Source: a virus. Taken from it: a DNA stretch of 51,733 nucleotides. Below, one piece after another: positions 269 through 39,315 of this stretch. A program made the position numbers and the translations under genes. The stretch lies in UHGV virus genome UHGV-0405561; one strand, 5' to 3'. Under the pieces are notes generated by a model. The model was not told the origin of the DNA and did not search any database. It worked only from the letters and a program-made list of their open reading frames with translations. Numbering within the stretch: the stretch's first letter is position 1; the number at the start of each line of letters is the position of its first letter.

Positions 269-285
269 GAACCTTGTTCACGGTG
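269..285 (+). promoter_or_regulatory. late-operon motif GAACCTTGTTCACGGTG, copy 1
   Basis: Exact 17-mer with an internal GAAC-N3-GTTC dyad, 47 nt upstream of the ATG at 333. One of six copies, all on the + strand and all about 50 nt upstream of start codons. Confidence 0.6.
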
Positions 286-332
286 ATTCATTTCCTTTCT
301 TCGGGGCATCATCCTGAAAAAGGAGGTTCGGC

Positions 333-530
333 ATGTACGTTGAAAATACCCATTATTGGGTTGAGGTTGTGCTGCGGCAGTTAAAGGGGTTTGTCCCCAA
401 GGGCGATCCTGTCCATTTTCACATTTGTTTTTCGATGGTGGGAGGGGAACCCACGATAGATTTCACGGCTGTTCAGGTTTTTGATGAGGGAGATCAACTA
501 CAACCTCAAACCGAACCCGCGATGTGCTAG
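333..530 (+). CDS. small hypothetical protein (65 aa)
   Basis: Strong Shine-Dalgarno (SD) sequence AAGGAGG 7 nt upstream of the ATG, and sits directly downstream of motif copy 1. No recognisable domain. Confidence 0.4.
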   Translation: MYVENTHYWVEVVLRQLKGFVPKGDPVHFHICFSMVGGEPTIDFTAVQVFDEGDQLQPQTEPAMC

Positions 531-854
531 AATCGGATGTTTCCCGGTGCCCATCCGCCTTCAGGCTCGCCGCAATCACGGCCACGCCAAAGCCGCCTCC
601 AGCCTTGCCGGACTTGCTGGCCGTAATGGCAATATCAAAAGCCACGGTCTGCAATTGGCATTGAGAATGAAAGGCTTCGGGGTTCCTGATCCGCTCAGGG
701 CCGTTTTCCTTAGCATGGTAGTACGGATTGATGAGCGCCCCAGAACCCCGCAACCGCGTCTGCGCGCCGTCATTATGGCGGCTCCTTGCTTTTCGAGTAG
801 GACGCCACAACGCATGTCCCATGTCAAGCGCCAGAGGCGCAGAGAGCTTTTCCC

Positions 855-871
855 GAACCTTGTTCACGGTG
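855..871 (+). promoter_or_regulatory. late-operon motif, copy 2
   Basis: ccGAACCTTGTTCACGGTGcg; 50 nt upstream of the baseplate gene ATG at 922. Confidence 0.6.
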
Positions 872-921
872 CGCCTTGCGCCCCGTTTGTGCCATACTCC
901 CGTAAAAAAGCAGGATGAGGT

Positions 922-1290
922 ATGGCGCATAGCACACGCACGTTGCTCCTTGATGGCGATTGGGACATCACGCTGACGAAGGCCGGAAATTTGGCTCTTG
1001 CCGAGGGCGACTATGCGACGGCGCAGAACGTCGCCAACGAATGCCGCCTGTTCACGCAGGACGCCTTTTTCGCACAAGATGACGGCATTCCGTGGTACGT
1101 CGCCCAGCTTGGCAAGCCGCTGGCCCGTTCCGTGGCCTCGTCGCGTATGCGCCAAGCGGCTTCCGATGTTTCCGGCGTCGTTTCCGTAGAGTCCGTGACG
1201 GTCGAAGACATTGACCCCGTAACCCGGATCATGGACGGAACCATCAGGCTGACCACGACGGAGGGAACCAGTGTCGCAGTTGACCTTTGA
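922..1290 (+). CDS. baseplate assembly protein (gpW/gp25-like or DUF2634-like)
   Basis: 122 aa, immediately upstream of and overlapping a baseplate J-family gene. Position and size fit the small wedge protein that precedes gpJ in P2/Mu-type baseplate modules. Confidence 0.55.
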   Translation: MAHSTRTLLLDGDWDITLTKAGNLALAEGDYATAQNVANECRLFTQDAFFAQDDGIPWYVAQLGKPLARSVASSRMRQAASDVSGVVSVESVTVEDIDPVTRIMDGTIRLTTTEGTSVAVDL

Positions 1291-2503
1291 TCCCAAACTT
1301 GGGCTGGTGGCCCCTGAAACCGAGTCCATACGCGAGGCCGTACAGTCGGACTGGCAGGGCGCGTTCCGGGACGTGGACGTTGAGCTGAACGTCGAGCCCT
1401 CCACCCCCGCGGGGCAGCTTGTGGATGCGGAAACGGCGGAAATCGAGGCGAAGAACGCCGAGTTGCTGTTTCTCTCCAACATGTTCAATCCGAAAGTGTC
1501 CGAGGGGCGGTGGCAGGACGCGCTGGGCTACATCTATTTTCTCACCCGTAAGATCGCGCAGCCCACGGTGGTGGAATGCTCCGTGACCGGGCTTATGGGC
1601 ACGACCATCCCCTACGGGGCGATGGCTCAGAGCACGGACGGCTATTACCTGCTCAATACCGGGGCCTTCACCATTCCCGAATCCGGCACGGCGACGGGCT
1701 ATTTCCGGCTTGCCGAGCCTGGGCCCATCCCCATTGCGGCGGGCAGCGTCACGAAAATCGTCACGCTCATCCCCGGATGGTCCTCCATCGTCAACAAATC
1801 CGCAGGGGTCGTCGGACGCGACATGGAGACGCGGGCCGAGTTCGAGTCTCGGCGTTACGCTTCTGTCGCCAAGAACGCCCACGGGACCGCTCCGTCGCTT
1901 TACGGTGCTCTTGCGGATATCGACGGCGTCATCGACTGCCGGGTGCTCGAAAACATCACCAATGTGGAAGTGGTCAAATACGGCGTTACGCTGGAGGGCC
2001 ATTCCGTCGCCGCGTGCGTCTACGGCGGGGACGACACCGCCATTGCGGAAGTCCTTTTTCGGAAGAAGGATGCAGGCTGCGGGACGAGCGGAAACACTGA
2101 GGTTACCTACGAGGATACGGAGCGTTCCAACGCCTACGGCGGGCCGCTCTATCACTACAAAATCGTACGCCCGTCCGTCGAAACGTTCTGGATACAGGTT
2201 AATCTCGTCAGCAAGTCACTCATGGCGGAGACGACGCTTGAGGCCGTCAGGCAGGCGGTCATGGACGATTTCCTCGGCAAGTCCGAAGCATCGGGAAACG
2301 CCCGCGTGGGGCTGGCGCAGACCGTGTATGCCAGCCGGTTCTATACGTCGGTCATGGCGGTGGAAGGCATCACCTACCTGAAGAATGTCAAAATCCGGCT
2401 CGGCGGGTCCCCTGAGACATGGTTGGACGTGGTGGACATCGACGCCGATGTGGAACCCACGCTGACGCTCGACAACATCCTCGTCAATGTGACGGAAAGC
2501 TGA
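1271..2503 (+). CDS. baseplate J-family protein (P2 gpJ / Mu gp47-like)
   Basis: 410 aa. Recognised from the overall Baseplate_J pattern and its position between W-like and I-like genes. Confidence 0.8.
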   Translation: MSQLTFDPKLGLVAPETESIREAVQSDWQGAFRDVDVELNVEPSTPAGQLVDAETAEIEAKNAELLFLSNMFNPKVSEGRWQDALGYIYFLTRKIAQPTVVECSVTGLMGTTIPYGAMAQSTDGYYLLNTGAFTIPESGTATGYFRLAEPGPIPIAAGSVTKIVTLIPGWSSIVNKSAGVVGRDMETRAEFESRRYASVAKNAHGTAPSLYGALADIDGVIDCRVLENITNVEVVKYGVTLEGHSVAACVYGGDDTAIAEVLFRKKDAGCGTSGNTEVTYEDTERSNAYGGPLYHYKIVRPSVETFWIQVNLVSKSLMAETTLEAVRQAVMDDFLGKSEASGNARVGLAQTVYASRFYTSVMAVEGITYLKNVKIRLGGSPETWLDVVDIDADVEPTLTLDNILVNVTES

Positions 2504-2510
2504 GGTCACT

Positions 2511-3158
2511 ATGGGCGCCCCCACATGGCTCAACATGGATGACGTTCCCGATATGCGGGAGGTGGATAACGTCGATTCGCTGGTACCGGATTCAATCCAG
2601 TCGCAGTATGCGGCGTCCGGGCGCATCGTCGCGCTGGTACGGGGATTCCAGGCCCGGATTGACGCCTCCGCGGACATTGACACCTTTTTTGAGAAGTGGG
2701 TGAACCTGCCCACCTGCGAGGGCTGCGCACTCGACAACTGGGGGCGTATCGTCGCGATCACCCGCGTTTTGCAGGGGCACGAGTCCGTAACTCCGGGATT
2801 CGCCGACCAGATCGTCTGGGACGACGCCTATTTCAAGTTCTTGCTCATGTACAAGGCGATGGCGAACATCACCGCCGCCGACGCCGGGCAGATCAACCGC
2901 ATGATGTCTATGCTGTTTCAGGATGTTACCTACGTCCTCGACATGCAGGACATGACCATCCGCGTCATCTTCGACTACTATCCCACCGACGTGCAGATCA
3001 CCATGTTCCTAGCCTACGGCCTGCTCAACCGGGGTGGGGGCGTCGGCTACAAATGGTATCGCATCAAGACCGATGAGACGTTCGGATTCGACGATCAGGA
3101 ACTGCTCCCGTTCAATCAGGGGATTTTCTCCCCCTACCGCCTGACGGAAGGATTTTAG
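2511..3158 (+). CDS. tail protein I-like (DUF2313 / Mu gp48-like)
   Basis: 215 aa directly after the J-like gene. Composition and order match P2 gpI / YmfQ family. Confidence 0.6.
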   Translation: MGAPTWLNMDDVPDMREVDNVDSLVPDSIQSQYAASGRIVALVRGFQARIDASADIDTFFEKWVNLPTCEGCALDNWGRIVAITRVLQGHESVTPGFADQIVWDDAYFKFLLMYKAMANITAADAGQINRMMSMLFQDVTYVLDMQDMTIRVIFDYYPTDVQITMFLAYGLLNRGGGVGYKWYRIKTDETFGFDDQELLPFNQGIFSPYRLTEGF

Positions 3159-3160
3159 AC

Positions 3161-4072
3161 ATGGCATATCCGCTGCATTTCTTTACCCAGCCGTTTTGTG
3201 ATGCTGGGGACAAAACCATTCCCACGGACGAACAACCCGCCGAAGGCCGCACCAGCCTGCCGCTGGGGTTCCCGCCGGAGACGCAAAAGCCCATCCGCGA
3301 CGGCGGCATCGCACCGGATCGCTGGGACTTCAACGGCATCCTTTACATGCTCTCCGCGCTTGCCTACTGGCAGCAGTCTGGGGGGCAGTGGAAATATAAC
3401 GCGTCATTTCCCTACGCACCGCCGTCGTTCTGCTATTATAATGATCAGCTTTGGTATTGTATCAAAGAGAATGGGCCTAAAACGGCGAATGCCGCTGTGG
3501 TTCCGGGAACAGACACGACGTATTGGGTTGATCTGCTCTGGTTCATTGCCGGAAAGAAATATTGTTCCCGCACGGGAAACACGATCCAGCTTACCGGGCA
3601 GTACGTTACCGGGACCGGAACGATTGACGAAGCCGGAGAATGCAGTTTTTCCCCCGTGGTCCACCAAGCGGACAAGCTCACTACGGCTCGAAACATTTCG
3701 CTCTCCGGCGACGTGTCGGGAACCGTATCTTTCGACGGTTCACGGGGAGTAACGATTTCCACGACAGTGTCCTCCTCCCTCCGCATGGTCCCGGATTGGA
3801 CGCGCATATCTACGTCTATCAATCCCATTGTGCCTGGGAGCTCCTATACCGTGCCGTCGAATGGGTATGTATGGGTATGGGCGGCGACCCGCGGTGTGGA
3901 CGAAATCTGCCAAATCAGCATCGCAGGAACGGTGTTTACCGGATGCTCAGGCGTTAATGATTGGGTTGATACAGCCATTCCCGTAGCCAGCGGTGACATT
4001 ATCCGATTCTCAGGCAACTGGTCGGAATTAACCCCTGGCGATAACCGTATGTTCTTTATCCCCGCGAAATAA
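3161..4072 (+). CDS. tail fibre protein (N-terminal baseplate-attachment type)
   Basis: 303 aa following the I-like gene. Thr/Ser/Gly-rich C-terminal part (TGTGTIDEAG..., SGDVSGTVSFDGSRGVTISTTVSS) typical of fibre shafts. Confidence 0.5.
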   Translation: MAYPLHFFTQPFCDAGDKTIPTDEQPAEGRTSLPLGFPPETQKPIRDGGIAPDRWDFNGILYMLSALAYWQQSGGQWKYNASFPYAPPSFCYYNDQLWYCIKENGPKTANAAVVPGTDTTYWVDLLWFIAGKKYCSRTGNTIQLTGQYVTGTGTIDEAGECSFSPVVHQADKLTTARNISLSGDVSGTVSFDGSRGVTISTTVSSSLRMVPDWTRISTSINPIVPGSSYTVPSNGYVWVWAATRGVDEICQISIAGTVFTGCSGVNDWVDTAIPVASGDIIRFSGNWSELTPGDNRMFFIPAK

Positions 4073-4082
4073 GGTGTTGCAT

Positions 4083-5678
4083 ATGGCGTTTAAATTTATT
4101 CGCACCGGAACCGGCGAGCTATCCGGCCCTTCCATGATTTACCAGATAGAGCAGGGGTTCGACGACACGGCGGCCTCTGCCGAGGAAGCGCGCAAGATGG
4201 CAGCAAATGCCGAAGCCACGGCGAATAAGGCGCTGGAGGAGGCTACCGAAGCAACAGCCGTGGCGGATGTGGCCCTGAAGACGGCTCAGGATGCGCAGGC
4301 AAGCGCAGGCGCGGCGCAAAACCGGGCGGACGAGGCGTGGAGCGCGGCGACCGGCGGGGGCGAATCCGCCGAGGCCGCCATGCAGCGGGCCAATGCCGCA
4401 TACGTGTTGGCGGACACGGCGAACGCCAACGCCCTGAGCGCACAATCCAAAGCTGACGCGGCTACCACAGCGGCGGAAGAAGCCACCACGTCGGCGGATA
4501 CGGCGGCTGCGGCCGCAACGGAAGCCACGGCAACGGCAAACGAAGCCATCTCCAAAGCGGGGACGGCGGAATTTGCGGCTCATCAGGCGTCTTCGGACGT
4601 ACAGGTGCTCAAGTCAATCATTGACGGATTGGAGAGCGCGACAGACGAGTTTGAAGCAGACAGCTATACTACGTCTCTTGATAGCTTTGTAAGCACCCTC
4701 GTAAAAAAATACATTACTGGTACGATTACCTCCGTTCTTCCTGGCGGCGTGTCCGCGCCATTCTGGTTCTACAACTGGTCTACGAATAATCTCACTAAAG
4801 TTTTTCAGTTTATCCAAACGGATACTGGAAAATATGGGCGTATCGGAACTCCATCGGACATTACCATGCGCGATGGAGAAGATACGTTTTACATTCAGTT
4901 CAAAAGTGGGACGTCTACTTCGGCAACGTCCGTAGCCGTTTCTTGCGCCGACAATGCGCTAACCGCTGCGGGCCAACGTGGGTTTACGTGGACAGTGACA
5001 TCCACTCCGGCACGGGGCCTTGTGGGGACGCTGGCGTGGGATGCCACCACACCCGACGGGACGGAAATCATCATTGGCAACCGGGTTGTCGCTACTGTCA
5101 CCGGCGGCAACGTGGTGGTGAGTGACGCTAGCCCTTTCCCCAGCACAAACGCGACTCTCGCACTTATGGCCGGCACGATTGCCGCTTCCTCCACCACACT
5201 CGAAATTTCTTTCGTTTGGACTTCGTTAGACGCTTCCGGGTGCACGTGGGATGTGTGGAATGAAACGGGGGATAAAGAAGGGGTCGTGCGTACGACTGGA
5301 GACCAGTCCATCGCGGGGACAAAGACATTCATTGGTGCGGTTCGGTTAACGGACGTTGCCGAAAAATTCCAAACGGTTTCGAGCGCAACAGGAACTGTTT
5401 CACTTAACCTCTCCGACGGCAACATTTTCTACCTAACTGCAACCGGCAATCTCGCGCTGGAGTTTGTCGGTCTGATTTCGGGTTTCGTCCATTCGGTTTT
5501 CATTCAGCTTACAAACGGCGGGAATTACACCGTTGCGTACCCGGCAAACGTGAGATGGCCCGAAAAGGCCGCCCCCACTTTGACGGAAAACGGGATGGAC
5601 TTGCTCATGTTTATCACTAATGACAACGGTTCTTCATGGGATGCTACCTACTGTCTTGATATTGGGGTTCCGGCATGA
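4083..5678 (+). CDS. tail fibre protein with N-terminal Ala-rich coiled coil
   Basis: ATG at 4083 with SD AAGGTG 6 nt upstream. N-terminal AEATANKALEEATEATAVADVALKTAQDAQASAGAAQNRADEA coiled coil, then a T/S-rich beta-type distal domain. Confidence 0.55.
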   Translation: MAFKFIRTGTGELSGPSMIYQIEQGFDDTAASAEEARKMAANAEATANKALEEATEATAVADVALKTAQDAQASAGAAQNRADEAWSAATGGGESAEAAMQRANAAYVLADTANANALSAQSKADAATTAAEEATTSADTAAAAATEATATANEAISKAGTAEFAAHQASSDVQVLKSIIDGLESATDEFEADSYTTSLDSFVSTLVKKYITGTITSVLPGGVSAPFWFYNWSTNNLTKVFQFIQTDTGKYGRIGTPSDITMRDGEDTFYIQFKSGTSTSATSVAVSCADNALTAAGQRGFTWTVTSTPARGLVGTLAWDATTPDGTEIIIGNRVVATVTGGNVVVSDASPFPSTNATLALMAGTIAASSTTLEISFVWTSLDASGCTWDVWNETGDKEGVVRTTGDQSIAGTKTFIGAVRLTDVAEKFQTVSSATGTVSLNLSDGNIFYLTATGNLALEFVGLISGFVHSVFIQLTNGGNYTVAYPANVRWPEKAAPTLTENGMDLLMFITNDNGSSWDATYCLDIGVPA

Positions 5679-6808
5679 TCCAAAAAATGTTTATGGGTAT
5701 GATGGGCGCATCTGACGTTAATCCATTTTCTCGTGAGCAGCAGTTCATCACCTCTGGAACGTATGAGTTTGTCGTCCCAAAGGGCGTGAAAGGGATTAAA
5801 GCTCTGGTCATCGGGGGGGGCGCGAAGGGAAAGACGAATGGCGTAGCAACCGGAGGGAAGGGTGGCGGTGTCATATCCGGCATCATCAAAGTAAGACCCG
5901 GAGACATCTTGAGTATCGCGGTAGGCGCGGTGTTGGAAAATGTGGGAGGTACGTCTGCGATAACCCGAGCTGGAGACGTGTTGCTGCAAGGCAACGGTGG
6001 AACGAATGCAGCCCGGGGAGGTACTGCGTACGCTGAGCTTGTGACGCTGCTTTCAAACTACAATGCTACGAGCTTGCCCACGGCAGTGTATAAAGGTTGT
6101 AGATCGTTCCTTGAAATGGCCGACGACGCATGGGCGTTTCATCCGGGGTTTTGGGCCGGGGGGAATGGTGGGGGATATAGTTCTGCATACGGTGCAACGA
6201 AAGGTAGTAGCGGAAAGTTGGGTACAGGTGGATACGGGATCGGCGGAACTGGCGGAACTGGGGGACTGAATGACTATGCTAAGACTTACGGTGAAAATGG
6301 CGGCGGAGAATTCGGGGGAGGAGGCGGAAGTCCGACAACCCAAGCTTACCATGCTAATGGTGGAGGTGGTGGCGGTAGCGGAGATGGCTTAGGAGGCAAT
6401 GGGGGTAGAGGTGGAGACACTGCTCTCGGCGGAGGCTTTGGAGGCAACGGGGGAACCGGTTTTGGAGCCGGGGGCGGTGGAGGCGGCGGCGCAAATCTGG
6501 GAGGTACTTCAGGTACGGCTGGGGCGGGAGGAAGAGGCGGTGGACCGAGGGGAGGAGCAGGGGGGAAAGGCAGCATTTATATGCAGGATAATAGCAATAA
6601 AGGAGGTGGAGGAGGCGGGGGAGGTGGAGGAGAATTTGGCGGCTACGGCGGCAACGGCGGCTCAGGCGGCTACAGTGGCCCAGGCGGTTACGGAGGAAAT
6701 GGAGGAAATGGAGGATATGGAGGAGACGGAGGAGACGGAGGTTCTGGAGGAATTAAGGTCGGAAACGGAGGCGCAGGTGGACCCGGAGCGGTCGTAATAT
6801 GGTATTAA
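5675..6808 (+). CDS. glycine-rich fibre-associated protein (Gly_rich PF12810-like)
   Basis: 377 aa. N-terminal globular part (TSGTYEFVVPKGVKGIKALVIGGGAKG), then about 230 aa of GGNGG/GGYGG repeats. Encoded by GGN-repeat low-complexity DNA at 6150-6800. Confidence 0.5.
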   Translation: MIQKMFMGMMGASDVNPFSREQQFITSGTYEFVVPKGVKGIKALVIGGGAKGKTNGVATGGKGGGVISGIIKVRPGDILSIAVGAVLENVGGTSAITRAGDVLLQGNGGTNAARGGTAYAELVTLLSNYNATSLPTAVYKGCRSFLEMADDAWAFHPGFWAGGNGGGYSSAYGATKGSSGKLGTGGYGIGGTGGTGGLNDYAKTYGENGGGEFGGGGGSPTTQAYHANGGGGGGSGDGLGGNGGRGGDTALGGGFGGNGGTGFGAGGGGGGGANLGGTSGTAGAGGRGGGPRGGAGGKGSIYMQDNSNKGGGGGGGGGGEFGGYGGNGGSGGYSGPGGYGGNGGNGGYGGDGGDGGSGGIKVGNGGAGGPGAVVIWY

Positions 6809-6827
6809 TGATATTAAGGAGGTAACT

Positions 6828-7457
6828 ATGCTTATCAATATCAAAACAAAAGAGCTCATCAACGAATCAGCTTTTCGGGGGCTGCACCCATCCATTTCTC
6901 TGCCTGCCCGTCTGACCGATGATGTTTTGGCAGACTATGGACATGCGACATACTCGTACACTGAGCCGCCGGACTACGATTCGGAAACGCAGACTCGCTC
7001 CGAAACCCCTCAGTTTGTCGAGGGTAAATGGCGTCAGGTATGGACTGTCGAAGATATTGAATTTACGTCGGAAGAATTGGCGGAGCGTCTTGTGCAGAAG
7101 AAGGCCGCAAAACTCTCTGAGATCAAGTCGGCTTTTGTATCCGCCGAAGCCGACGGCTACGTCGAGTCGTCGCTTGGCTTCCGGGCCGACGCCACGCGCC
7201 GAAGCATCGAAGACATCGACGGCTTGATCGATCTCGTCTCGTCCGGTGCGCTTCCGGCCCCGGTGACGTTCCGTGATTACGACAACGCCTATCATAGCCT
7301 GACCCTTGACCAACTCAACGTCTTGCGGCTGGAAGCCAAGGGGCGCGGCCCGGTGCTTTATGCCCGGAAATGGGAGCTTGAAGCCGCCGTGGAGGCCGCC
7401 GAAACCGTGGAAGCCGTACAAGCGGTGGATGCGGGGGCAGTCTGGCCCGGAGTCTAA
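6828..7457 (+). CDS. hypothetical tail-fibre-region protein (possible fibre assembly/chaperone)
   Basis: 209 aa, strong SD AAGGAGG. Last gene of the fibre operon before the next motif copy. Confidence 0.35.
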   Translation: MLINIKTKELINESAFRGLHPSISLPARLTDDVLADYGHATYSYTEPPDYDSETQTRSETPQFVEGKWRQVWTVEDIEFTSEELAERLVQKKAAKLSEIKSAFVSAEADGYVESSLGFRADATRRSIEDIDGLIDLVSSGALPAPVTFRDYDNAYHSLTLDQLNVLRLEAKGRGPVLYARKWELEAAVEAAETVEAVQAVDAGAVWPGV

Positions 7458-7504: not shown

Positions 7505-7521
7505 GAATTTTGTTCACGGTG
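7505..7521 (+). promoter_or_regulatory. late-operon motif, copy 3 (variant GAATTTTGTTCACGGTG)
   Basis: 55 nt upstream of the ATG at 7577. Half-site degenerate (GAAT) but TTGTTCACGGTG conserved. Confidence 0.5.
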
Positions 7522-7576
7522 GGTGACGCATGAGGTCACCCCTTCTATCCGCCGGGCGGCGTAGGCCGGGGGAGAT

Positions 7577-8443: not shown

Positions 8444-9143
8444 CGACGCAACGCTTGATACGCCTTCCTCTCCGTTCAACGTTCTGTCATTCTTGATGGA
8501 GAGTGTTCTCAATCAGCAGTTGAACACGGCCCTCCCCGTACGTGTGGACTCCTGCACGAAACCGGGGACGGGCGACGCAGCGGGGTATGTCTCAGCCACG
8601 CCGCTGATTTGCCAGCGCGGAGCCGACGGCAGGGCCCTCACCCCTGTGAGCATTCCGAAACTGCCGTTTTTCCGGCTCCAGTGTGGAAAGGCGGCGGTTG
8701 TCATCGACCCCCAACCGGGCGATGTGGGGCTTGCCGTATTCGCGCAGAAAGACTGTTCGACGTTGCAAGCCGGAAAGACGGAGCCCGAAGTTGCCGGGAG
8801 TTTCCGCCGCTTTGACATGAGTGACGGCTTTTATATCGGCGGCTTCCTCGGCGTGCCCCCGGAAACGTTTGTCCACCTCGACCCTGAGGAACAAACCGTC
8901 ACCGTGACCGGCCCCCAAACGGTGACGCTCAACGCCGACAAAAAAATCACGCTCAACGCCCCGCTGGTCGAAGTCACCGGGCGCATCGTCCAGACCGGCG
9001 AACGCGCGGAAGACGGCGGATCGTCCTTCACCGGCGGCTTTACGAATACCGGAGGCCGCATCACGTCCAACGGCATCGTCCTTGAAGAACATACGCACAC
9101 TGGCGTGGAGGCGGGGGACGACAGTACGGGAGAGCCCCAGTAA
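8412..9143 (+). CDS. baseplate spike protein (gpV / Mu gp45-like)
   Basis: N-terminal OB-like region (PVRVDSCTKPG...), beta-helical repeats (TVTVTGPQTVTLNADKKITLNAPLVEVTG) and a C-terminal EEHTHTGVE His-rich apex motif typical of gpV-type spikes. An alternative start at Met 8496 is possible. Confidence 0.6.
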   Translation: MAQDSSREVYSDATLDTPSSPFNVLSFLMESVLNQQLNTALPVRVDSCTKPGTGDAAGYVSATPLICQRGADGRALTPVSIPKLPFFRLQCGKAAVVIDPQPGDVGLAVFAQKDCSTLQAGKTEPEVAGSFRRFDMSDGFYIGGFLGVPPETFVHLDPEEQTVTVTGPQTVTLNADKKITLNAPLVEVTGRIVQTGERAEDGGSSFTGGFTNTGGRITSNGIVLEEHTHTGVEAGDDSTGEPQ

Positions 9144-9362: not shown

Positions 9363-9370
9363 TAAATTTC

Positions 9371-27516: not shown

Positions 27517-27533
27517 GAACCTTGTTCACGGTG
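27517..27533 (+). promoter_or_regulatory. late-operon motif, copy 4
   Basis: cagGAACCTTGTTCACGGTGtc; 48 nt upstream of the endolysin ATG. Confidence 0.6.
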
Positions 27534-27581
27534 TCGCCTCCTGCCCTCCTGTGCGAGGGTGGGCGCAGGAGGAGGATTTAT

Positions 27582-28680: not shown

Positions 28681-28681
28681 G

Positions 28682-31363: not shown

Positions 31364-31584
31364 AACTCCTCCTGTCGATTCCGAACCATACCGGGGTTAG
31401 AAAGTCAACAGGTTGTTTTATCGACGCGCTGGCGTCTCAATCATATGATGCCTACAACTGGATCGATGAGGGGTTGCAGCGTATGAGGCTGGCAATCATC
31501 GTCGCACGGGCGGCAAACAGGACGATTGCAGAAGCGAACGAGCAAACAGGGCCCCAGAAACGGGGGCTTTTCTTTTGCCTGCAC

Positions 31585-31601
31585 GAACCTTGTTCACGGT
31601 G
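31585..31601 (+). promoter_or_regulatory. late-operon motif, copy 5
   Basis: cacGAACCTTGTTCACGGTGttt; 33 nt upstream of the portal ATG, preceded by a hairpin and T-run at 31548-31580. Confidence 0.6.
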
Positions 31602-31634
31602 TTTTTCCTTCTTCGCTCGTAGCATGATGCTCCC

Positions 31635-33896
31635 ATGAGCAAGAAGCGCACTTATCGACATGCCACCTCCATACCTCCGCAAGCGCAGCCGTCGCGCCGT
31701 CTGAATCTCTCCCCGGACGTGCGCGGCGGCCTTGCTCAGCCTTTGCCGCCTACGCCCGACGACATCAGCAGGCTGTACGGTCCGGCGAAGACGCTCGGCG
31801 CGCCCGAAGAGGTGCAGCTTGCGATGGACGCACGGCTTGCGGACTCCGGCGTCTATTCCCTGCTCCAGCATTCCCTTGAGCTCGGAGTCGGGATTGCCCC
31901 TCAGTTCATGGGATACGGCGTCCTCCAGAATCTTGCCCAGAACGGATTGATCCGTGCCTGCGTCGAGACGGTATCCGACGACATGACCCGCGAGTGGATT
32001 GAGTTCAAGCGCGAAGGGGAGGGCGATGATGACGCCCTGCTTACCGACCTCGCACAGGCTTGCAAGAGATTGGGGCTCCAGCGTCTTTTCCACGAAGCGA
32101 CGGAGCTTGTGGGGTACGAGGGCGGGGCCCTCCTCTTCATCGACACCGGGGCCATCGGGCAAGAGCTGGAGCGCCCGCTGAACATCAGCCCGTACTCGGC
32201 GGAACTGAAACCCGGCGGACTCCTGCGCTTCGTCGTCATCGACCCGGTGAACGTTTTCCCCGGCGACTACAACAGTCTTTCGCCGCTTGAGCCGGACTAC
32301 TTCCGTCCGCGCTGGTGGTGGGTGCTTGGGCAGCGTGTGCACGCCTCGCGCCTCATCCGATTGGTTGCGAACGAATGCCCGGTGCTGCTGCGGCCCGCCT
32401 ACAATTTTTTGGGCATCCCGCAGGCGCAGATACTCTGGGACTATGTGCTGCACTTTCAGGAGTGCCGCGCCGCAGAAGCCCGGTTGTTGACGAAGTTTTC
32501 GTTAACCGTCTTCAAGACGAAGATGGACGACATTCTTTTCGCCTCAGGCGGTACGGCCCATCTCGATACCCGCATCCGGTACATGATCCAGTCCATGACG
32601 AACGACGGCGTGCTTGCCGTGGACAAAGAGGCGGAAGAGGTGGTGAAGCTGGAAACGCCGCTTTCCGGCGTAACCGACATCGTGCGCCAGTCCCTCGAAA
32701 TCCTCGCCGCCCTGAACCGCACCCCGGCGGTCAAACTGCTCGGCATCAGCCCGTCCGGGTTCAATGCCACGGGCGAATCGGACATCCGCAACTATTACGA
32801 CCATATCACGAGCCAGCAGGAGAAAGTCCTGCGCGACGGCATCAAGAAGGCGCTCGACTGTATCCAGCTCCACCTGCGCGGAACCATCGACCCGTCCGTG
32901 ACGTTCGACTTCGCGCCCCTCGGCGGGGAGGACAGGGCGGCCCTTGCGACGCTCCAGAAGACCAAGGCCGACACCATCGCCGTCTACATGGATCGGGACA
33001 TCATCTCTCAGGAAGAAGCCCGGCAGTCCCTTGCCAGTGACCCGGACAGCGGTTTCTCCAACATAGACCCGGAGGAAGTGCCGCAGGGCAACGGAATGCC
33101 CGACGCTCTGCCGGAAGCCGGGGAAGGAGGCTTGATGCCCGACATCGACGACGTGGACAAGGCCGGGGCCGTCTACGACGCCGCGTGGGACGAGGATGTC
33201 TGGCGTACCGCCGAGAACGGGAAACGGTATCAGATCGACACTGAAACCGGCGAGATCAAGAAAGGGAATGTGGGGCAGCCCGTCGTCAACCGGGAGTCAC
33301 GTCCCGTGGAGTCCTCCAAGCCGGACACGGCCCGTTATGAGGCATTGGTGCGGGAACACGGCGGTGACCACAAGAAGGCTGCGCATGCTTATTTCCGCGA
33401 GAAATTGCAGGGGCGGCATGTCACCGCGCAGACGGATAATGGGCCGATAGAGGCGTGTTTTACCGGCGGCGGATGGGGTGAGCTGAAGAAGGGGATGAGG
33501 GATGATCCACTTAAGGCTGCATTGGTTCCGCATTTGCCGGATATCGTCGCCCATGGAACGTACAGCGTAGACACTCCGGCGCATAATCATCCAGACGTAA
33601 GAAAGTTCCACTCATACGCCAAGTCCATCCACACGGAGCAAGGGGATTTTGAGGCGATAGTCGATGTAGCGGAACGTCCGGAAAAGCAGCCGCAGCATCA
33701 GGTTTACAGCCTGACGCGAGAAGGAACGCGGGAGTACGAATACCGTAGACAAAAAGAGTCGGCGTTTTCCCCCGCGGCCCCCGGGCAAAACCGGGGCGCT
33801 AGAAAAACGCCGACTCATGGCAGCGATGCTGCTCTTGAGAAAAATATAGCTCCTTTCTTCGAGGTTGTAAATATTCGTTTCGCTAATGAGGAGTAG
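31635..33896 (+). CDS. portal protein with an approximately 270-aa C-terminal extension of unknown function
   Basis: The first 480 aa or so are portal-like. An acidic linker (PDIDDVDKAG) is followed by a distinct globular C-terminal region (HLPDIVAHGTYSVDTPAHNHPDVRKFHSYAKSIHTEQGDFEAIVDV). Confidence 0.75.
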   Translation: MSKKRTYRHATSIPPQAQPSRRLNLSPDVRGGLAQPLPPTPDDISRLYGPAKTLGAPEEVQLAMDARLADSGVYSLLQHSLELGVGIAPQFMGYGVLQNLAQNGLIRACVETVSDDMTREWIEFKREGEGDDDALLTDLAQACKRLGLQRLFHEATELVGYEGGALLFIDTGAIGQELERPLNISPYSAELKPGGLLRFVVIDPVNVFPGDYNSLSPLEPDYFRPRWWWVLGQRVHASRLIRLVANECPVLLRPAYNFLGIPQAQILWDYVLHFQECRAAEARLLTKFSLTVFKTKMDDILFASGGTAHLDTRIRYMIQSMTNDGVLAVDKEAEEVVKLETPLSGVTDIVRQSLEILAALNRTPAVKLLGISPSGFNATGESDIRNYYDHITSQQEKVLRDGIKKALDCIQLHLRGTIDPSVTFDFAPLGGEDRAALATLQKTKADTIAVYMDRDIISQEEARQSLASDPDSGFSNIDPEEVPQGNGMPDALPEAGEGGLMPDIDDVDKAGAVYDAAWDEDVWRTAENGKRYQIDTETGEIKKGNVGQPVVNRESRPVESSKPDTARYEALVREHGGDHKKAAHAYFREKLQGRHVTAQTDNGPIEACFTGGGWGELKKGMRDDPLKAALVPHLPDIVAHGTYSVDTPAHNHPDVRKFHSYAKSIHTEQGDFEAIVDVAERPEKQPQHQVYSLTREGTREYEYRRQKESAFSPAAPGQNRGARKTPTHGSDAALEKNIAPFFEVVNIRFANEE

Positions 33897-33898
33897 GC

Positions 33899-34285
33899 AT
33901 GGCGCGTACAGCACTGAAATTGGGCAGCGGTACCCACATGAGTTTCGGCGGTTCAAGCATCACGGTCATCCAAGAGCCGGGCATCTTCATTCCCTACGAT
34001 CCCAATGGGGGGCAGGCTATGGATGAACTCAACCGTTTCCTTGTCCGGTATGGGTATTGTCCCCCCGGAGAAGGCATTCCAGATGAAATTCTAGGTCTGC
34101 GTCCGGAGGATTCAGCCATAGCCCATACTCTGAGGACATGGATGAAACAAGACAACAACAATCTCGACGACCAAGAGCTTGAAGAAAAGTTTCGCGAACG
34201 CATCCGGCATTTGGGCCCGATATTACGACGCATACGCCTTGAAAAAGAAACCGGACGCTTACCGGATCGTAGTGCCTGCGAATAG
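33899..34285 (+). CDS. hypothetical protein (128 aa) after the portal extension
   Basis: Lower-GC ORF with an A-rich start context. Possible immunity/partner of the portal C-terminal domain. Confidence 0.4.
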   Translation: MARTALKLGSGTHMSFGGSSITVIQEPGIFIPYDPNGGQAMDELNRFLVRYGYCPPGEGIPDEILGLRPEDSAIAHTLRTWMKQDNNNLDDQELEEKFRERIRHLGPILRRIRLEKETGRLPDRSACE

Positions 34286-34406
34286 CTTCCCTGTCGATCT
34301 CGTAACATTCCGGCGTGGTTTGCCATACTACAAGATAAACGCACATGGGGTTCCTCCTTTTGGGGCAGCACCGCACGGAACCGTAGGAATGTCAAGGTGG
34401 ATATGA

Positions 34407-35186
34407 ATGCCTAAAATCATCCGCGCCATCAAGCCCAACGCGGGCATCCGGGCGAAATACCGGAAGCGGCTGGTGTCCCTTCTCGACGAGATGCAGCGGT
34501 CCGTCATCTGGTGGCTGCGCGCGGAGTACAGGAAGCAGGAAACCCGCATAGCGCAGGATTCCCCGGCGAGTGACCTGCAAGACCGCCTCAAGCGCCTGTT
34601 TCGGTACTGGACGAGGCGGTGGAGGGAAAGCGCGGAGAGTTTCGCGCGGGAGTTCGTGGGCAGTACGCGGCGGCGCACGGAAGCCGGCATGAAGCAGGCC
34701 CTCAAAGATGCGGGCTTCACGGTGAGGATGGATAGGAGCAGGGCCATGAACGACGTGGCGCGGGCTCTTTTCGAGGAAAACGTCAACCTCATCAAGTCCA
34801 TTCCGCAGCACTATTTCACGGAAGTGACGGGGCTTGTACAGCGATCCGCCAGCATGGGCCGGGACGTGGCCTTTCTTACCGACGAACTGCACAAGCGGTA
34901 CGAGATCACCCGGCGCCGGGCCGAATTCATTGCCCGCGACCAGTCCAACAAGGCTACCGAGGCCCTTAAGCGCGTGCAGGATAAGGAGCTGGGCATCACC
35001 GAAGGCATCTGGGTGCATGTTCCGGGAAAGAAAACGAGCCGCCATACCCACCAGATGATGAACGGGGAAAAGTTCGTCATCGCGGAAGGGCTCTACGACT
35101 CTGACGTGAAGCGCAAGGTGCTTTGCGGCGAGCTTCCGGGGTGCCAATGTACGTATCGGGCCGTCATCCCTGAATTTGGAGACTAG
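34407..35186 (+). CDS. MuF-like head morphogenesis protein
   Basis: GIWVHVPGKKTSRHTHQMMNGEKF matches the Phage_Mu_F conserved core. Confidence 0.75.
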   Translation: MPKIIRAIKPNAGIRAKYRKRLVSLLDEMQRSVIWWLRAEYRKQETRIAQDSPASDLQDRLKRLFRYWTRRWRESAESFAREFVGSTRRRTEAGMKQALKDAGFTVRMDRSRAMNDVARALFEENVNLIKSIPQHYFTEVTGLVQRSASMGRDVAFLTDELHKRYEITRRRAEFIARDQSNKATEALKRVQDKELGITEGIWVHVPGKKTSRHTHQMMNGEKFVIAEGLYDSDVKRKVLCGELPGCQCTYRAVIPEFGD

Positions 35187-36902
<1,716 letters not shown>

Positions 36903-36912
36903 GAGGCACACC

Positions 36913-37548
36913 ATGCCTTTGCAGTCCCAAGTCAATCTCTCCGTCGCTCCCGGCGTCGCGGGCGACAAAGCGACGCCCGATCAGAGCGTCTACACCCCGC
37001 TCAACCCCCTGGCGGCGGTGGCCCTCCCTGTGGGGCGCTTCGTCTTCCCGGTCGAGGATTCCGGGGTGCTCGACAATACGCGGGCCACCAACGTCGCGGG
37101 CGCCGCCACAGCCGTGCTCGGCTTCGTTGAGCGCGTCATCAACTATGTGAACTATGAATTGCTTTCTGACGGCACCCTGACCGTCCCGGAAGGCTCGAAC
37201 CTCACCGTGGCCGTGAAGGGCGACTATTGGGCCGTTTCCACGACCAAGGCCGCGGTGGGGCAGGCCGTCCTTGCCTCCACCGCCGACGGTTCCATCAGCA
37301 CCGGGACCCCCGACGCCACGCATCTCGATACGGGGTGGGTCGTCAAGACTCCCGGCGAAATCGGGGAACCGATCATCATCAGCAATTGGGGGCAGGCCGC
37401 AGCGTCTGGTTCCGGCGGCGACACCTCGAGCCTGATGCAGAAAGATTTCAGCAACGCCACCGGCGCGCTCGGCGTGGCCAACGGCGGAACCGGCGCAACC
37501 ACTGCGGAACAGGCCCGCACCAACCTCGGCGCAGCCGCCGGAGCGTAG
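36913..37548 (+). CDS. head structural protein (decoration/cement candidate)
   Basis: 211 aa between the scaffold and the major capsid gene. RBS AGGAGG. Confidence 0.4.
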   Translation: MPLQSQVNLSVAPGVAGDKATPDQSVYTPLNPLAAVALPVGRFVFPVEDSGVLDNTRATNVAGAATAVLGFVERVINYVNYELLSDGTLTVPEGSNLTVAVKGDYWAVSTTKAAVGQAVLASTADGSISTGTPDATHLDTGWVVKTPGEIGEPIIISNWGQAAASGSGGDTSSLMQKDFSNATGALGVANGGTGATTAEQARTNLGAAAGA

Positions 37549-37558
37549 GAGGTACTAC

Positions 37559-38572
37559 ATGAATCCGACTTTTGAACAGGCCAAGCGCTACGGCTTCATC
37601 TTCCCCAATGCGCGCATGTGGGCCACGCCCGAAAACCGCGCCCGCATCGCGCAGGACGCGGCGCTCATCACCACGCCGAACACGACCGTCCCCGCCGAGC
37701 TTCTGGCGTATATCGACCCGATGGTCATTGAAATCCTGACCGCACCCCGCCGCGCCCGCGAAATCTTCGGTGAAGAGAAAAAGGGCGACTGGACGACTCC
37801 GTATATGAAGTGGCGCGTGGACGAAATGACCGGAAAGACCGAGCCGTATTCCGACTACGCCAACGGCACGACTTCGGGCGTGAACTCCGAATGGCAGACC
37901 CGCGTGCAGTACGTCTTTCAGACCTCCATCACCTACGGCGACTTTGAAGTGGACATGTCGAGCACGGCGAAAGTCAACCTCGCGGCCTCCAAGCAGCGCG
38001 CGGCGGCCAACGTCATCGACATCGACCAGAATCGTTTCTACCTGCTCGGCGTCGCCGGGAAGGAAATCTACGGCATCCTGAACGACCCGAATCTCCCTGC
38101 GGCCATCACCGCAGGGGCCACGGGCACGGGCGGCTCCACGAAATGGGCCGACAAGACCACGGTGCAGATTTACAACGATGTCCTTGCGCTGTTCGCACAG
38201 CTCTCCGAGCAGTCCAGCGGCCTCATCGACAAGGATACCCCGCTGAAACTCTGCCTCTCCCCCGAACTGGCCGTTCGCCTCGGCGCGGCTACCGATTTCA
38301 ACGTGTCCGTGCTGGACATGCTGAAGCGGTACTTCACCCGCATCGACATCGTGACCGTCCCCGAACTGCACAGCATGACCGCCGGGGAAACCATGTTCCT
38401 CATCGCCCCCGAAGTGAACGGGCAGCGCTCCGGTACGCTGGCCTTCGGCGAAAAGATGCGCGCCGGCCGCGTCGTGCCCGACCTGTCCAGCTTCCGCCAG
38501 AAGTTCGTCGGCACCACCTACGGCGGCATCGTGCTCATGCCCTTCGCCTTCGCGCAGATGACCGGCATGTAA
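37559..38572 (+). CDS. major capsid protein
   Basis: 337 aa after the protease/scaffold and decoration genes. RBS AGGAGG. Most strongly SD-driven gene of the head operon. Confidence 0.65.
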   Translation: MNPTFEQAKRYGFIFPNARMWATPENRARIAQDAALITTPNTTVPAELLAYIDPMVIEILTAPRRAREIFGEEKKGDWTTPYMKWRVDEMTGKTEPYSDYANGTTSGVNSEWQTRVQYVFQTSITYGDFEVDMSSTAKVNLAASKQRAAANVIDIDQNRFYLLGVAGKEIYGILNDPNLPAAITAGATGTGGSTKWADKTTVQIYNDVLALFAQLSEQSSGLIDKDTPLKLCLSPELAVRLGAATDFNVSVLDMLKRYFTRIDIVTVPELHSMTAGETMFLIAPEVNGQRSGTLAFGEKMRAGRVVPDLSSFRQKFVGTTYGGIVLMPFAFAQMTGM

Positions 38573-38594
38573 AGCTGTTGCATTCCTCCATACG

Positions 38595-38633
38595 AAAGCC
38601 CCAACCGCCTGTTCAACGGTTGGGGCTTCTTTG
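38595..38633. terminator. bidirectional terminator
   Basis: aaagccccaaccgcctgttcaacggttggggcttctttg. Confidence 0.7.
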
Positions 38634-38651
38634 TACCTTTGGGGTATATAC

Positions 38652-38918
38652 TCAGTAATGATAGCGGCATTGGAGTACGATCAGGGCTTCGCTCTTTTCG
38701 TCCACCTTATAGACGAGCCGATCCTCCTGATTGATGCGTCGTGACCAGCATCCGGCAAGATCGAACCGGAGCGGTTCCGGCTTGCCCAGCCCTTCAAAAG
38801 GATTCCGCATGGCATCGCGCAACAATTCATTGATCCGTTTGACCGTGCGCTTGTCCGTATGCTGCCAGGAGAGGTAATCCTCCCACGCCTGCGGCGTCCA
38901 CGTGAGCAGCATGATCAA
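38652..38918 (-). CDS. yoeB: YoeB/Txe-family toxin
   Basis: TWTPQAWEDYLSWQHTDKRTVKRINELLRDAMRNPFEGLGKPEPLRFDLAGCWSRRINQEDRLVYKV...CRYHY is near-collinear with E. coli YoeB. Confidence 0.85.
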   Translation of the reverse strand: MIMLLTWTPQAWEDYLSWQHTDKRTVKRINELLRDAMRNPFEGLGKPEPLRFDLAGCWSRRINQEDRLVYKVDEKSEALIVLQCRYHY

Positions 38919-39169
38919 TCCTCCAGCTCATGCGGCATGGCCTTGCCCGCATCGGCGGCCTGTACCGCTTCCCTGAGCCGCGCGGCGTTGGCGGGCGAAC
39001 GGAGCAGATACGCCGTCTCCATGATGGCGTTGTAATCCTCAAGCGACATCATGACCACAGAGGGCGATTTTTGCCGGGTAATGATGACTGGCTCATGGTG
39101 ATCGCAGACACGGCTCATGGTTTCCGCAAGGTTTTGCCGGGCTTCGGAGTAGGTGATGGCCTGTGACAT
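38915..39169 (-). CDS. yefM: YefM/Phd-family antitoxin
   Basis: MSQAITYSEARQNLAETMSRVCDHHEPVIITRQ...SLEDYNAIMETAYLLRSPANA. Overlaps the yoeB start by 4 nt. Confidence 0.85.
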   Translation of the reverse strand: MSQAITYSEARQNLAETMSRVCDHHEPVIITRQKSPSVVMMSLEDYNAIMETAYLLRSPANAARLREAVQAADAGKAMPHELED

Positions 39170-39298
39170 GGTGCCCCCTTTGTTATTTTGTACAAAAATA
39201 TGTACAAATAAGGTGGACGTCAAGAGTAAAAGGCGGCCATTCTAAAAATCCACCGCTGTTTCCCCCGCCTCGCTATGGGGCTTTCCTTTTGCCCATGC

Positions 39299-39315
39299 GA
39301 ACCTTGTTCATGGTG
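39299..39315 (+). promoter_or_regulatory. late-operon motif, copy 6 (variant GAACCTTGTTCATGGTG)
   Basis: 51 nt upstream of the ATG at 39367. Confidence 0.55.

Follow-up and report, generated by a model that had tools for sequence, protein, structure and literature searches.

A repeated 17-bp element ahead of the late operons of a temperate Bilophila phage: candidate binding sites of a Mor/C-like activator

That several late operons each begin with a conserved activator site, placed ahead of a weak promoter, is familiar from the phages controlled by P2 Ogr and P4 Delta. In phage Mu, the site bound by C and Mor is a 16-bp imperfect dyad centred at -43.5, which overlaps or replaces the -35 element, and the Plys promoter requires the stretch from -52 to -34 (PMC2582627, PMC4390567). 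Here, we describe a comparable arrangement in a stretch of 51,733 nucleotides (hereafter the window), which represents the complete circular genome (51.7 kb) of a temperate phage whose host is Bilophila. Bilophila wadsworthia is a sulfide-producing gut pathobiont and, to our knowledge, almost nothing is known about gene regulation in its phages. The genome has a lambda-like layout: it encodes an integrase (9410-10462), a cI-like S24 repressor, Cro, CII as well as a replication initiator and loader, and a single activator gene occupies the place where Q would sit. The phage is not Mu-like, and with only one activator gene in an integrase-based, non-transposable genome, a two-activator cascade of the Mu type was not found. 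Comparison of the 20-kb late region with 50,697 GenBank phages at the level of DNA similarity gave no match, ARAGORN detected no tRNA at the tRNA-like sequence adjoining the integrase gene, and two CRISPR spacers searched exactly in IMG/VR returned nothing. In our estimate, the probability is about three in four that the six copies of the motif described below are the elements by which a Mor/C-like activator binds six late promoters of this phage; binding of the motif by the 122-aa protein, the start sites and the timing of expression are what we infer.

The repeated element and its promoter context

The motif GAACCTTGTTCACGGTG occurs six times in the window with zero to two mismatches, always on the + strand, and a search allowing up to three mismatches returned exactly these sites, four of them exact, one with a single mismatch and one with two (Table 1). 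Shuffled sequences yielded 0.15 matches on average and two at most, compared with the six observed, and the mismatch counts were bimodal: no site carried three mismatches, one carried four, and about 13, spread over both strands, carried five. All six copies are intergenic, each placed 33-55 nt ahead of the gene that opens a lysis or structural block; behind copy 6 this is a gene of unknown function (phrog_2085), which heads the head-tail/tail block. The six positions, their common orientation, the distance of 33-55 nt to the first ATG and the placement at the head of late operons had all been stated in the first-pass annotation, and the motif search, the shuffles and the measured distances bear them out, copies being found upstream of late operons only. 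An abundance of the motif at non-phage loci, named there as a refuting observation, was not seen: beyond Bilophila-type prophages, exact copies are no more frequent than expected by chance and lack the -10. Of the roughly 80 copies that the 17-mer has by chance in unrelated genomes, only three had a -10-like hexamer at the expected place.

Table 1. Positions of the motif copies, predicted promoter elements, hairpins and the activator gene in the window (distances to ATG are counted from the motif end)
Feature	Position	Strand	Remarks
Motif copy 1 (exact)	269..285	+	upstream of small ORF 333-530 (unknown, 65 aa); 47 nt to first ATG
Motif copy 2 (exact)	855..871	+	upstream of baseplate wedge / J / I / tail-fibre operon 922-7457; 50 nt to first ATG
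Motif copy 3, GAATTTTGTTCACGGTG (2 mismatches)	7505..7521	+	upstream of baseplate hub operon 7577-9143; 55 nt to first ATG
Motif copy 4 (exact)	27517..27533	+	upstream of endolysin-terminase operon 27582-30686; 48 nt to first ATG
Motif copy 5 (exact)	31585..31601	+	upstream of portal-protease-capsid operon 31635-38572; 33 nt to first ATG
Motif copy 6, GAACCTTGTTCATGGTG (1 mismatch)	39299..39315	+	upstream of head-tail / sheath / tube / tape-measure operon 39367-47444; 51 nt to first ATG
Predicted -10, CATCAT	307..312	+	21 nt after copy 1
Predicted -10, CATACT	893..898	+	21 nt after copy 2
Predicted -10, TTCTAT	7543..7548	+	21 nt after copy 3
Predicted weak -10, GAGGGT	27555..27560	+	21 nt after copy 4; in leader-hairpin loop
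Predicted -10, CATGAT	31623..31628	+	21 nt after copy 5
Predicted -10, CATGAT	39337..39342	+	21 nt after copy 6
Strong intrinsic terminator (A-run, GC hairpin, T-run)	225..262	+	-22.8 kcal/mol, z -5.7; ends 7 nt before copy 1
Terminator-like hairpin with T-run, moderate	31548..31570	+	15 nt before copy 5
Weak terminator-like hairpin with T-run	39263..39281	+	18 nt before copy 6; equalled by shuffles
Hairpin pairing CCUCCUGC with GCAGGAGG (endolysin Shine-Dalgarno)	27539..27576	+	RNA folding
Mor/C-family-like late activator, 122 aa	27144..27512	+	phrog_836; Pfam Mor similarity

The symmetry of the element can be read in two ways, either as GAAC-N3-GTTC centred near -45 or as ACCnTGnnCAnGGT (10 of 14 positions) centred near -41.5. 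The former dyad, which had been ascribed to the motif as such, is shared by the four exact copies and copy 6, but broken in copy 3 (GAAT) and several relatives; its half-sites are just 7 bp apart, and the motif does not display a clear 5-6-5 dyad as in the Mor site.

At each of the six copies in the window, a -10-like hexamer lies 21 nt after the motif, unaccompanied by a -35 element. When the contexts from the window and its relatives were grouped into 16 families according to their downstream sequence, a hexamer whose second base is A and whose sixth is T was located exactly 21 nt after the motif in 11 of them (CATGAT, CATCAT, CATTAT, CATACT, CATGCT, TTCTAT, GAGGGT or AGAGAT), and one further lysis-type family contains GAGAGT shifted by one base downstream. 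The spacer itself is not conserved, neither in the window nor in the relatives, and at the lysis promoter the -10, GAGGGT, is a poor or ambiguous one that is not clearly recognisable in one relative. Given the fixed distance of 21 nt, and provided that the predicted -10 is correct, the motif would span roughly -50 to -34 with its centre close to -42. This predicted position would match that of the Mu Mor/C sites. The likeness to late promoter control in Mu that had been noticed from the letters is thus supported, given a -10-like hexamer without a -35 and an element that would lie where C and Mor bind in Mu, and so is the remark that the site sequence differs from the Mu sites. Other promoter types fitted poorly: read as a canonical sigma-70 -35, the TTGTTC inside the motif would be 27 nt away from the -10, and a conserved -24/-12 pattern, as for sigma-54, is absent. 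At the portal operon, only 6 nt separate the CATGAT from the ATG and no Shine-Dalgarno sequence is found, for which reason the portal mRNA is predicted to be leaderless.

Terminators had been proposed directly upstream of several sites. This holds convincingly for two of the six (copies 1 and 5) and weakly for copy 6, while no terminator hairpin was found before copies 2, 3 and 4. At the lysis promoter, the leader hairpin (Table 1) spans both the predicted -10 and the predicted transcription start; the same design of the lysis leader exists in relatives, and in two of their loci (L188 and L190) a T-run comes after the hairpin. Opposite-strand insertions between the late blocks comprise an unknown gene, a YefM/YoeB module and a cargo island. 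Because terminators and these insertions divide the late genes into blocks, each block would carry its own promoter copy.

The activator and its relatives

The activator gene is the last one of the lambda-like early-right operon, and its start overlaps the preceding stop codon (ATGA). Previously delimited as 27141-27512 and said to end 5 bp before copy 4, it does end at 27512, but starts with the ATG at 27144 and leaves a gap of 4 nt. Over its full length, the 122-aa protein is matched by the PHROG family phrog_836, 'late transcriptional activator', with an E-value of 2e-14. The Pfam Mor model (PF08765) scores 20.4-20.5 bits (E 5e-4), which is below the curated cut-off of 24.9, and matches 67 of 80 relatives, collected by profile search, at E<1e-3 (best 2.2e-10). 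Given a score of its own below the cut-off, together with the matches of its relatives and of phrog_836, the protein is best regarded as a divergent Mor relative instead of a clean member of the family, and the Mor/C-family identity suggested earlier is supported in this sense.

HTH_23 matches residues 78-112, a C-terminal helix-turn-helix, and the AlphaFold model contains helices at 75-83, 88-95 and 99-110. In hhalign and MAFFT alignments, YGGRACFVP (residues 27-35) corresponds to LGGGQVYIP of Mor and LGGRQFYIP of C, a conserved strand motif of the form GG-x3-(Y/F)-x-P. The N-terminus of the protein is short and the helix-GG-strand unit occurs a second time, and it is the strand of this second copy, FGGMHIVVP (58-66), that is aligned by the Pfam model. 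Searching the activator sequence against the PDB gave nothing significant, whereas the family profile found generic HTH matches only, with the sequence of the Mor crystal structure at E 0.61. Foldseek with the AF2 monomer (pLDDT 81) likewise returned generic HTH folds from the PDB, with 1rr7 at rank 40 (E 2, not significant), although a monomer cannot reproduce an intertwined dimer.

Among 15 ORFs of the early region, which are a subset of the early ORFs, no Q-like, sigma-like or other late-regulator family was found. The CII-type activator (23202-23696) was dropped as a candidate for binding the motif for a biological reason, namely that the targets of CII proteins are lysogeny promoters and not structural operons.

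Related loci were retrieved with a 13-sequence sub-alignment of the activator. A prophage related to the phage studied here is located on contig NZ_JNJP01000012 of Bilophila wadsworthia ATCC 49260. Exact copies of the motif are present in 19 of 23 IMG/VR contigs encoding a 75-79% identical activator, and three activator clades correspond to three clade-specific motif variants: clade A (75-100% identity) to GAACCTTGTTCACGGTG in 16 distinct contexts, clade B (50-52% identity) to GAAACTTGTTCAGGGTG in five contexts without any A form, and clade C (43-46% identity) to GAACTTCTTCCGGGGAA, joined by two weaker copies that a 20-nt spacer separates from a -10, the motifs of clades B and C having been found by scanning with variants of the known motif and not de novo. 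This co-variation could reflect shared descent without direct recognition. De novo repeat searches at the loci of distant relatives (L184-L187, L189-L193) produced noise only within up to 10 kb downstream, one of these loci (L190) having no intergenic gaps within the downstream stretch covered, and two sets of activator-bearing loci showed no repeated motif within the 10 kb available.

Proposed mechanism and competing explanations

According to the reading that we favour, the 122-aa Mor/C-like protein would be produced at the end of the early-right operon, bind the 17-bp element and recruit the host sigma-70-type RNA polymerase, a step modelled on Mu Mor at Pm and on Mu C at Plys, PI, PP and Pmom. 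Each promoter would consist of the 17-bp element (about -50 to -34), a 21-bp non-conserved spacer without a -35 and a sub-optimal -10 of the CATnAT type, with the conserved A at -11 and the conserved T at -7, and each site would restart late transcription past a terminator or an inserted opposite-strand gene.

It is unlikely, in our opinion, that the late-promoter element is instead read by another factor, be it a phage protein that escaped recognition (the unannotated ORFs 26234-26842 and 25699-26130 are examples), a regulator of the host or an alternative sigma factor for which GAAC would act as a -35-type element. The GAAC of the motif does resemble the -35 core of ECF-sigma promoters, but 16-17 nt after GAAC, where an ECF promoter would have a conserved CGT-type -10, the bases belong to the non-conserved spacer, and the sole conserved downstream feature is the sigma-70-type nAnnnT hexamer 34 nt after GAAC; an ECF-sigma-type promoter was rejected for this spacing and because no sigma gene is present among the scanned phage genes. 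Several early ORFs match no family, yet those scanned include nothing sigma-like or Q-like, and even though the activator is assigned to Mor by weak sequence similarity only, the motif variants follow the activator clades. Moreover, a homologous activator is accompanied by a motif set of its own in Persinger, a phage of the unrelated host Pseudomonas, which argues against a host factor of Bilophila.

Less probable still is a motif that mainly serves as a recombination linker at mosaic boundaries, devoted to module exchange and without any regulatory role. Modules and flanks are indeed reshuffled among the relatives, where one downstream module follows differing upstream flanks and vice versa, with the breakpoint at the motif (the upstream flank of copy 2, for instance, is joined in the locus L041 to a different downstream module); a mere homology patch, however, needs neither a single orientation nor a fixed 21-nt spacing to a -10-like hexamer nor a constant placement 33-55 nt before late blocks, and exchange at shared promoters is the expected by-product of a conserved regulatory site. 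Least credible of all is an action of the motif in RNA, whether in processing, in a leader bound by protein or in antitermination of read-through transcripts, since, although any read-through RNA from upstream operons would contain it and its 3' end at copy 3 is part of a hairpin (GGTGAC...GTCACC), no common RNA structure contains the motif across the six copies, what is conserved at a fixed distance from it is a promoter element of DNA, and three copies sit downstream and not upstream of terminator hairpins, which they therefore cannot suppress.

A bolder extension of the activator reading is offered tentatively, as we expect it to fail somewhat more readily than to hold: a distinct Mor-derived subfamily, characterised by a short N-terminus, a duplicated helix-GG-strand unit, a three-helix HTH and the lack of a cascade, may have replaced Q in lambda-like phages of Desulfovibrionaceae and Pseudomonas, together with insulated late cassettes, a hairpin-nested lysis promoter and a leaderless portal mRNA. 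If so, the late regulon would be composed of insulated cassettes of terminator, activator site and weak -10, which would tolerate the insertion of morons between late operons; the hairpin/terminator around the lysis promoter would sequester the Shine-Dalgarno sequence of the endolysin gene, so that the lysis genes could only be expressed from activator-initiated transcripts starting inside the hairpin; and some late genes, such as portal, would be expressed from leaderless mRNAs.

Independently of this extension, a complete putative late regulon is open to testing, with one activator, six defined promoters and predicted start sites. These starts are expected about 34 nt beyond the motif ends, near 319, 905, 7555, 27567, 31635 and 39349. 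The compact pair of activator and promoter could find use in Desulfovibrionaceae as a switch for gene expression, and the combination of motif, 20-21 nt and nAnnnT provides an annotation rule for late operons in this group of phages.

Comparison with known late control systems

Phages with P2 Ogr or P4 Delta share with the present one the copy of an activator site heading each of several late operons, but their TGT-N12-ACA sites near -55 and their zinc-finger activators are absent here. Lambda Q, like the activator, is the last early-right gene and immediately precedes the lysis genes; however, Q acts at one promoter (PR') by read-through of terminators, whereas six separate promoter-like sites are found here. 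Control of the Q type is also at odds with the absence of a Q homologue among the scanned early genes and with the three sites located downstream of terminator hairpins.

In Pseudomonas phage Persinger, gp60 (annotated as 'late transcriptional activator') is 42% identical over the C-terminal two thirds and is encoded just upstream of the lysis genes. The synteny extends over the pyrophosphatase, a hypothetical gene, the activator, the lysis genes and the terminase, and Persinger also contains repeated sites on the late strand at a fixed spacing to an nAnnnT hexamer: the 19-mer GGAAATCCCACAAGAGGAA occurs five times, all on the late strand, and each copy is followed after 18 nt by such a hexamer. 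We found no published analysis of this motif. It differs from the Bilophila phage motif in that the 19-mer is another sequence, the spacer measures 18 nt instead of 21 nt and two copies lie inside annotated genes.

The closest resemblance is to Mu. As with Mu C, the activator is small, contains a strand with GG and has its HTH at the C-terminus; it is combined with several putative late promoters that have a -10 but no -35 and whose 16-19 bp element would span about -52 to -34, and the activator gene directly precedes the lysis promoter and the endolysin gene (C, Plys, endolysin in Mu). Terminator hairpins likewise lie directly before Pm and Plys in Mu (PMC2582627). As with Mor at Pm, the site would take the place of the -35, its predicted centre being near -43.5, and the T-rich, alpha-CTD/UP-like tract located upstream in Pm (PMC4390567) may be compared with the T-runs of the preceding terminators, which three copies have at about -55 to -65. 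The differences from Mu concern the site, which is unrelated in sequence and has a 4-3-4 dyad or a 14-bp imperfect palindrome instead of 5-6-5, and the protein, which has a short N-terminus, a second helix-GG-strand unit and marginal sequence similarity, and for which a structural match to Mor (1RR7) was not recovered with Foldseek and the AF2 monomer model. They also concern the wiring: Mor controls one promoter, as opposed to six candidate targets here, and a single activator without a Mor-to-C cascade would operate in a lambda-like integrase genome that is not transposable. Mor/C-type control would reach from Mu-like transposable to lambda-like integrating phages, and there is good support for the view that the Bilophila phage represents a new example of a known control scheme and not a new regulatory principle.

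Six copies of one motif on a complete circular genome

Searching the window with up to three mismatches, we found six matches to the 17-bp motif GAACCTTGTTCACGGTG, all on the + strand (see table; copies 1-6 are numbered by position), whereas dinucleotide-preserving shuffles gave a mean of 0.15. When the limit was raised to six mismatches, the three-mismatch class stayed empty, one match appeared at four mismatches and about 13, on both strands, at five; given this clean gap, there are exactly six sites. The motif set is real in the window and reproduces the six-copy, single-strand element described by the first-pass annotation. Its further statement that the copies lie 33-55 nt before the first ATG of an operon holds for every + strand late block, each of which is headed by a copy.

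At the window ends (51550-51733 joined to 1-209) one reading frame continues across the junction; this ORF has EKVRxETEKVR coiled-coil repeats and finishes in a hydrophobic C-terminal tail. The 51,733-bp window is therefore a complete, circularly closed genome, and the count of six sites covers all of it. The phage is lambda-like and temperate. Next to the integrase gene, the stretch 9335-9399 contains a tRNA T-arm-like sequence (GGGAGATTCGAACTCCC, - strand) together with a strong bidirectional terminator; this is likely the attP region, where ARAGORN detected no complete tRNA. The leftward early block contains an Erf-like recombinase gene, and the rightward early operon reads cro-like, CII-like, antirepressor, replication initiator, helicase-loader-like, unknown, MazG-like and, last, the candidate activator of 122 aa, whose ATG overlaps the stop codon of the preceding gene.

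Features of the window and of the Persinger genome
Feature	Coordinates	Strand	Remark
Motif, exact	269, 855, 27517, 31585	+	GAACCTTGTTCACGGTG search
Motif, one mismatch	39299	+	GAACCTTGTTCACGGTG search
Motif, two mismatches	7505	+	GAACCTTGTTCACGGTG search
Small ORF	333-530	+	late block
Baseplate wedge, J and I proteins, fibres	922-7457	+	late block
Baseplate hub	7577-9143	+	late block
Integrase	9410-10462	-	
cI-like HTH/S24 repressor	21879-22610	-	
Candidate activator	27144-27512	+	
Endolysin to large terminase	27582-30686	+	late block
Gene of unknown function		-	between large terminase and portal blocks
Portal, protease, major capsid	31635-38572	+	late block
YefM antitoxin / YoeB toxin module	38652-39223	-	between major capsid and head-tail genes
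Head-tail genes, sheath, tube, tape measure, Dit-like, plug proteins	39367-47444	+	late block
CRISPR mini-array	47892-48160	+	no cas genes
Cargo island, two parts	48187-50160; 50520-51449	-; +	between tail and baseplate genes
Persinger GGAAATCCCACAAGAGGAA copies	627-645, 4992-5010, 31508-31526, 37498-37516, 41933-41951	-	Pseudomonas phage

The cargo island encodes a protein with a tRNA_anti-like OB domain, an HSDR_N nuclease-like protein and a Bro-N protein, and is adjoined by the CRISPR mini-array, which has a related array at L185:938-1570. Five 28-nt type I-F-like repeats (GTTGTCCGCCGTGTAGGCGGTTTAGAAG) enclose four 32-nt spacers. Two of these match one related Bilophila prophage next to a 5' CC PAM, spacer 1 in the tape-measure gene (L161:331-362, 30/32) and spacer 4 in the Dit gene (L161:916-947, 31/32); the window's own Dit copy (46982-47009) carries mismatches to spacer 4 and a PAM altered to GC. 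Spacer 3 matches a Bro-N gene region in at least 10 related phage loci (29-30/32, without the CC PAM). The array thus looks phage-borne and directed at sibling phages.

Predicted promoter anatomy and occurrence in other genomes

Alignment of the six window copies on the motif revealed no conservation in the following 21 nt; the hexamers after this spacer are CATCAT, CATACT, TTCTAT, GAGGGT, CATGAT and CATGAT. The motif contexts of the window and of related contigs in IMG/VR fall into 16 downstream-sequence families, 11 of which show, exactly 21 nt after the motif, a hexamer whose second base is A and whose sixth is T, while a lysis-type family has GAGAGT one base off and another, an evident chance match, has neither form. 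If the predicted hexamer occupies -12 to -7, the motif lies at about -50 to -34; a -35 hexamer was found at none of the motif-bearing promoter candidates. Shine-Dalgarno sequences are present in the short downstream leaders except for portal, whose ATG follows the predicted -10 by 6 nt without one, in the window (31623-31637) and all relatives, an arrangement kept in other activator clades (L204/L244:12390, L255:15706). A leaderless late portal mRNA is therefore predicted. In related phages the motif is also a mosaic junction, one upstream flank being joined to different downstream modules or the reverse (for example, the flank of copy 2 at 855 compared with L041, L048 and L089, and at many further loci).

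The exact 17-mer occurs in 64 IMG/VR stretches on about 42 contigs, among them 19 of the 23 contigs encoding an activator 75-79% identical. One genome per species (596 Gb) contained 93 stretches, about 70 being expected for a random 17-mer. The matches in Bilophila wadsworthia ATCC 49260, further Bilophila assemblies, an uncultured Desulfovibrio and one MAG lie in DNA with homology to this phage and have the -10-like hexamer at +21; of some 80 isolated copies in unrelated taxa, only three have nAnnnT there. Abundance at non-phage loci, named in the first-pass annotation as a result that would speak against its reading, was not observed.

The candidate activator and its probable cognate sites

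The designation of the gene before copy 4 as a Mor/C-family activator can be kept in part. Along its whole length the protein matches phrog_836 ('late transcriptional activator', E 2e-14), and it also matches Pfam HTH_23. Among 1.8 billion representatives, a search with a profile recovered 884 relatives, 67 of 80 aligned ones matching Pfam Mor at E<1e-3; the protein's own Mor score (20.4 bits) stays below the cut-off of 24.9. Neither a PDB sequence search nor a fold search recovered Mor with significance, and on all these results together we treat the activator as a divergent Mor/C relative rather than a curated member. In hhalign and MAFFT alignments, its GG-x3-(F/Y)-x-P strand motif lines up with the invariant-glycine linker found in both Mor and C of Mu. 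The activator has two units of helix plus GG-x3-hydrophobic-x-P strand (residues 24-39 and 55-70, CAQYGGRACFVP and CTAFGGMHIVVP), where Mor and C have one each.

Scanning the loci of more distant relatives for motif variants yielded clade-specific forms, in every case on the activator strand. Clade A (75-100% identity to the window activator) has GAACCTTGTTCACGGTG in 16 distinct contexts, and clade B (50-52%) has GAAACTTGTTCAGGGTG in five, with no clade A form in 503 kb. Clade C (43-46%) has GAACTTCTTCCGGGGAA directly 3' of the activator gene in two contexts, and additionally GAAC(A/T)TCTTCCGGG(C/T)AT about 7 kb downstream, followed by a 20-nt spacer, TATCCT, 6 nt and ATG. Pseudomonas phage Persinger (NC_054149) encodes a homologue just 5' of its lysis genes and carries five copies of GGAAATCCCACAAGAGGAA, none being expected by chance, on the late strand only. 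Each is followed after 18 nt by CAGACT, AACAAT, GACCAT, CAGAAT or CAAACT (nAnnnT); one copy lies within the activator gene and one within the annotated major head gene. Shared descent could account for part of this pattern. Nevertheless, cognate pairing of activator and site would predict just such a picture: in four lineages, from two host phyla, a homologous activator is accompanied by a private site that is repeated and identically positioned.

The motif is unlikely to be read by another factor or by an alternative sigma: the phage genes scanned include no such gene, sequence is not conserved at ECF-sigma spacing, and the clade and host pattern speaks against it. Still less probable is a pure recombination linker; the motif visibly is a mosaic junction, but its orientation and fixed spacing to the -10 would be left unexplained. 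A role at the RNA level is the least probable, as three copies sit downstream of terminator hairpins and the six share no RNA structure.

Proposed mechanism and comparison with Mu

As far as sequence analysis goes, the first-pass interpretation of Mor/C-activated late promoters is supported. Early-right transcription would produce the activator, which would bind the six sites and recruit host RNA polymerase to weak -10 promoters lacking a -35, so that every late block would be turned on independently of terminators and opposite-strand insertions. The claim that several copies directly follow a terminator hairpin applies to copy 1 (strong, -22.8 kcal/mol, z -5.7), copy 5 (moderate) and copy 6 (weak); none was found before copies 2, 3 and 4. 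At the predicted lysis promoter, a hairpin (27539-27576) pairs CCUCCUGC, just 3' of the motif, with the endolysin Shine-Dalgarno sequence and encloses both the predicted -10 and the predicted transcription start, a nested design also seen in relatives. Downstream of the clade C activator genes (L188, L190) the corresponding hairpin, highly stable at -28 to -35 kcal/mol, has a T-run behind it and hence is a terminator. Read-through early transcripts would thus be terminated or translationally blocked, while activator-initiated ones would lack the 5' hairpin arm and be translatable; with the predicted start inside the hairpin, only late transcripts would escape.

In Mu, the C site is a 16-bp imperfect dyad centred at -43.5 and overlapping the -35, Plys needs -52 to -34, and late promoters have a -10 and no -35 (PMC2582627); the Mor site is a 16-bp element, likewise centred at -43.5, in place of the -35 (PMC4390567). 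Cryo-EM indicates a tetramer touching alpha-CTD, sigma region 4 and the beta flap (bioRxiv 10.1101/2025.05.02.651988). Mu itself has terminator hairpins directly 5' of Pm and Plys, and its C gene is followed by Plys and then the endolysin gene. From this site geometry and gene layout, the window agrees with Mu in predicted motif position, absent -35 and local gene order, bearing out the suggested resemblance, whereas the site sequence differs, as had also been noted, and its symmetry appears to differ too. The mechanism itself is already known; what is new in this probable Mor/C-type late regulon of a lambda-like Bilophila phage is the site sequence.
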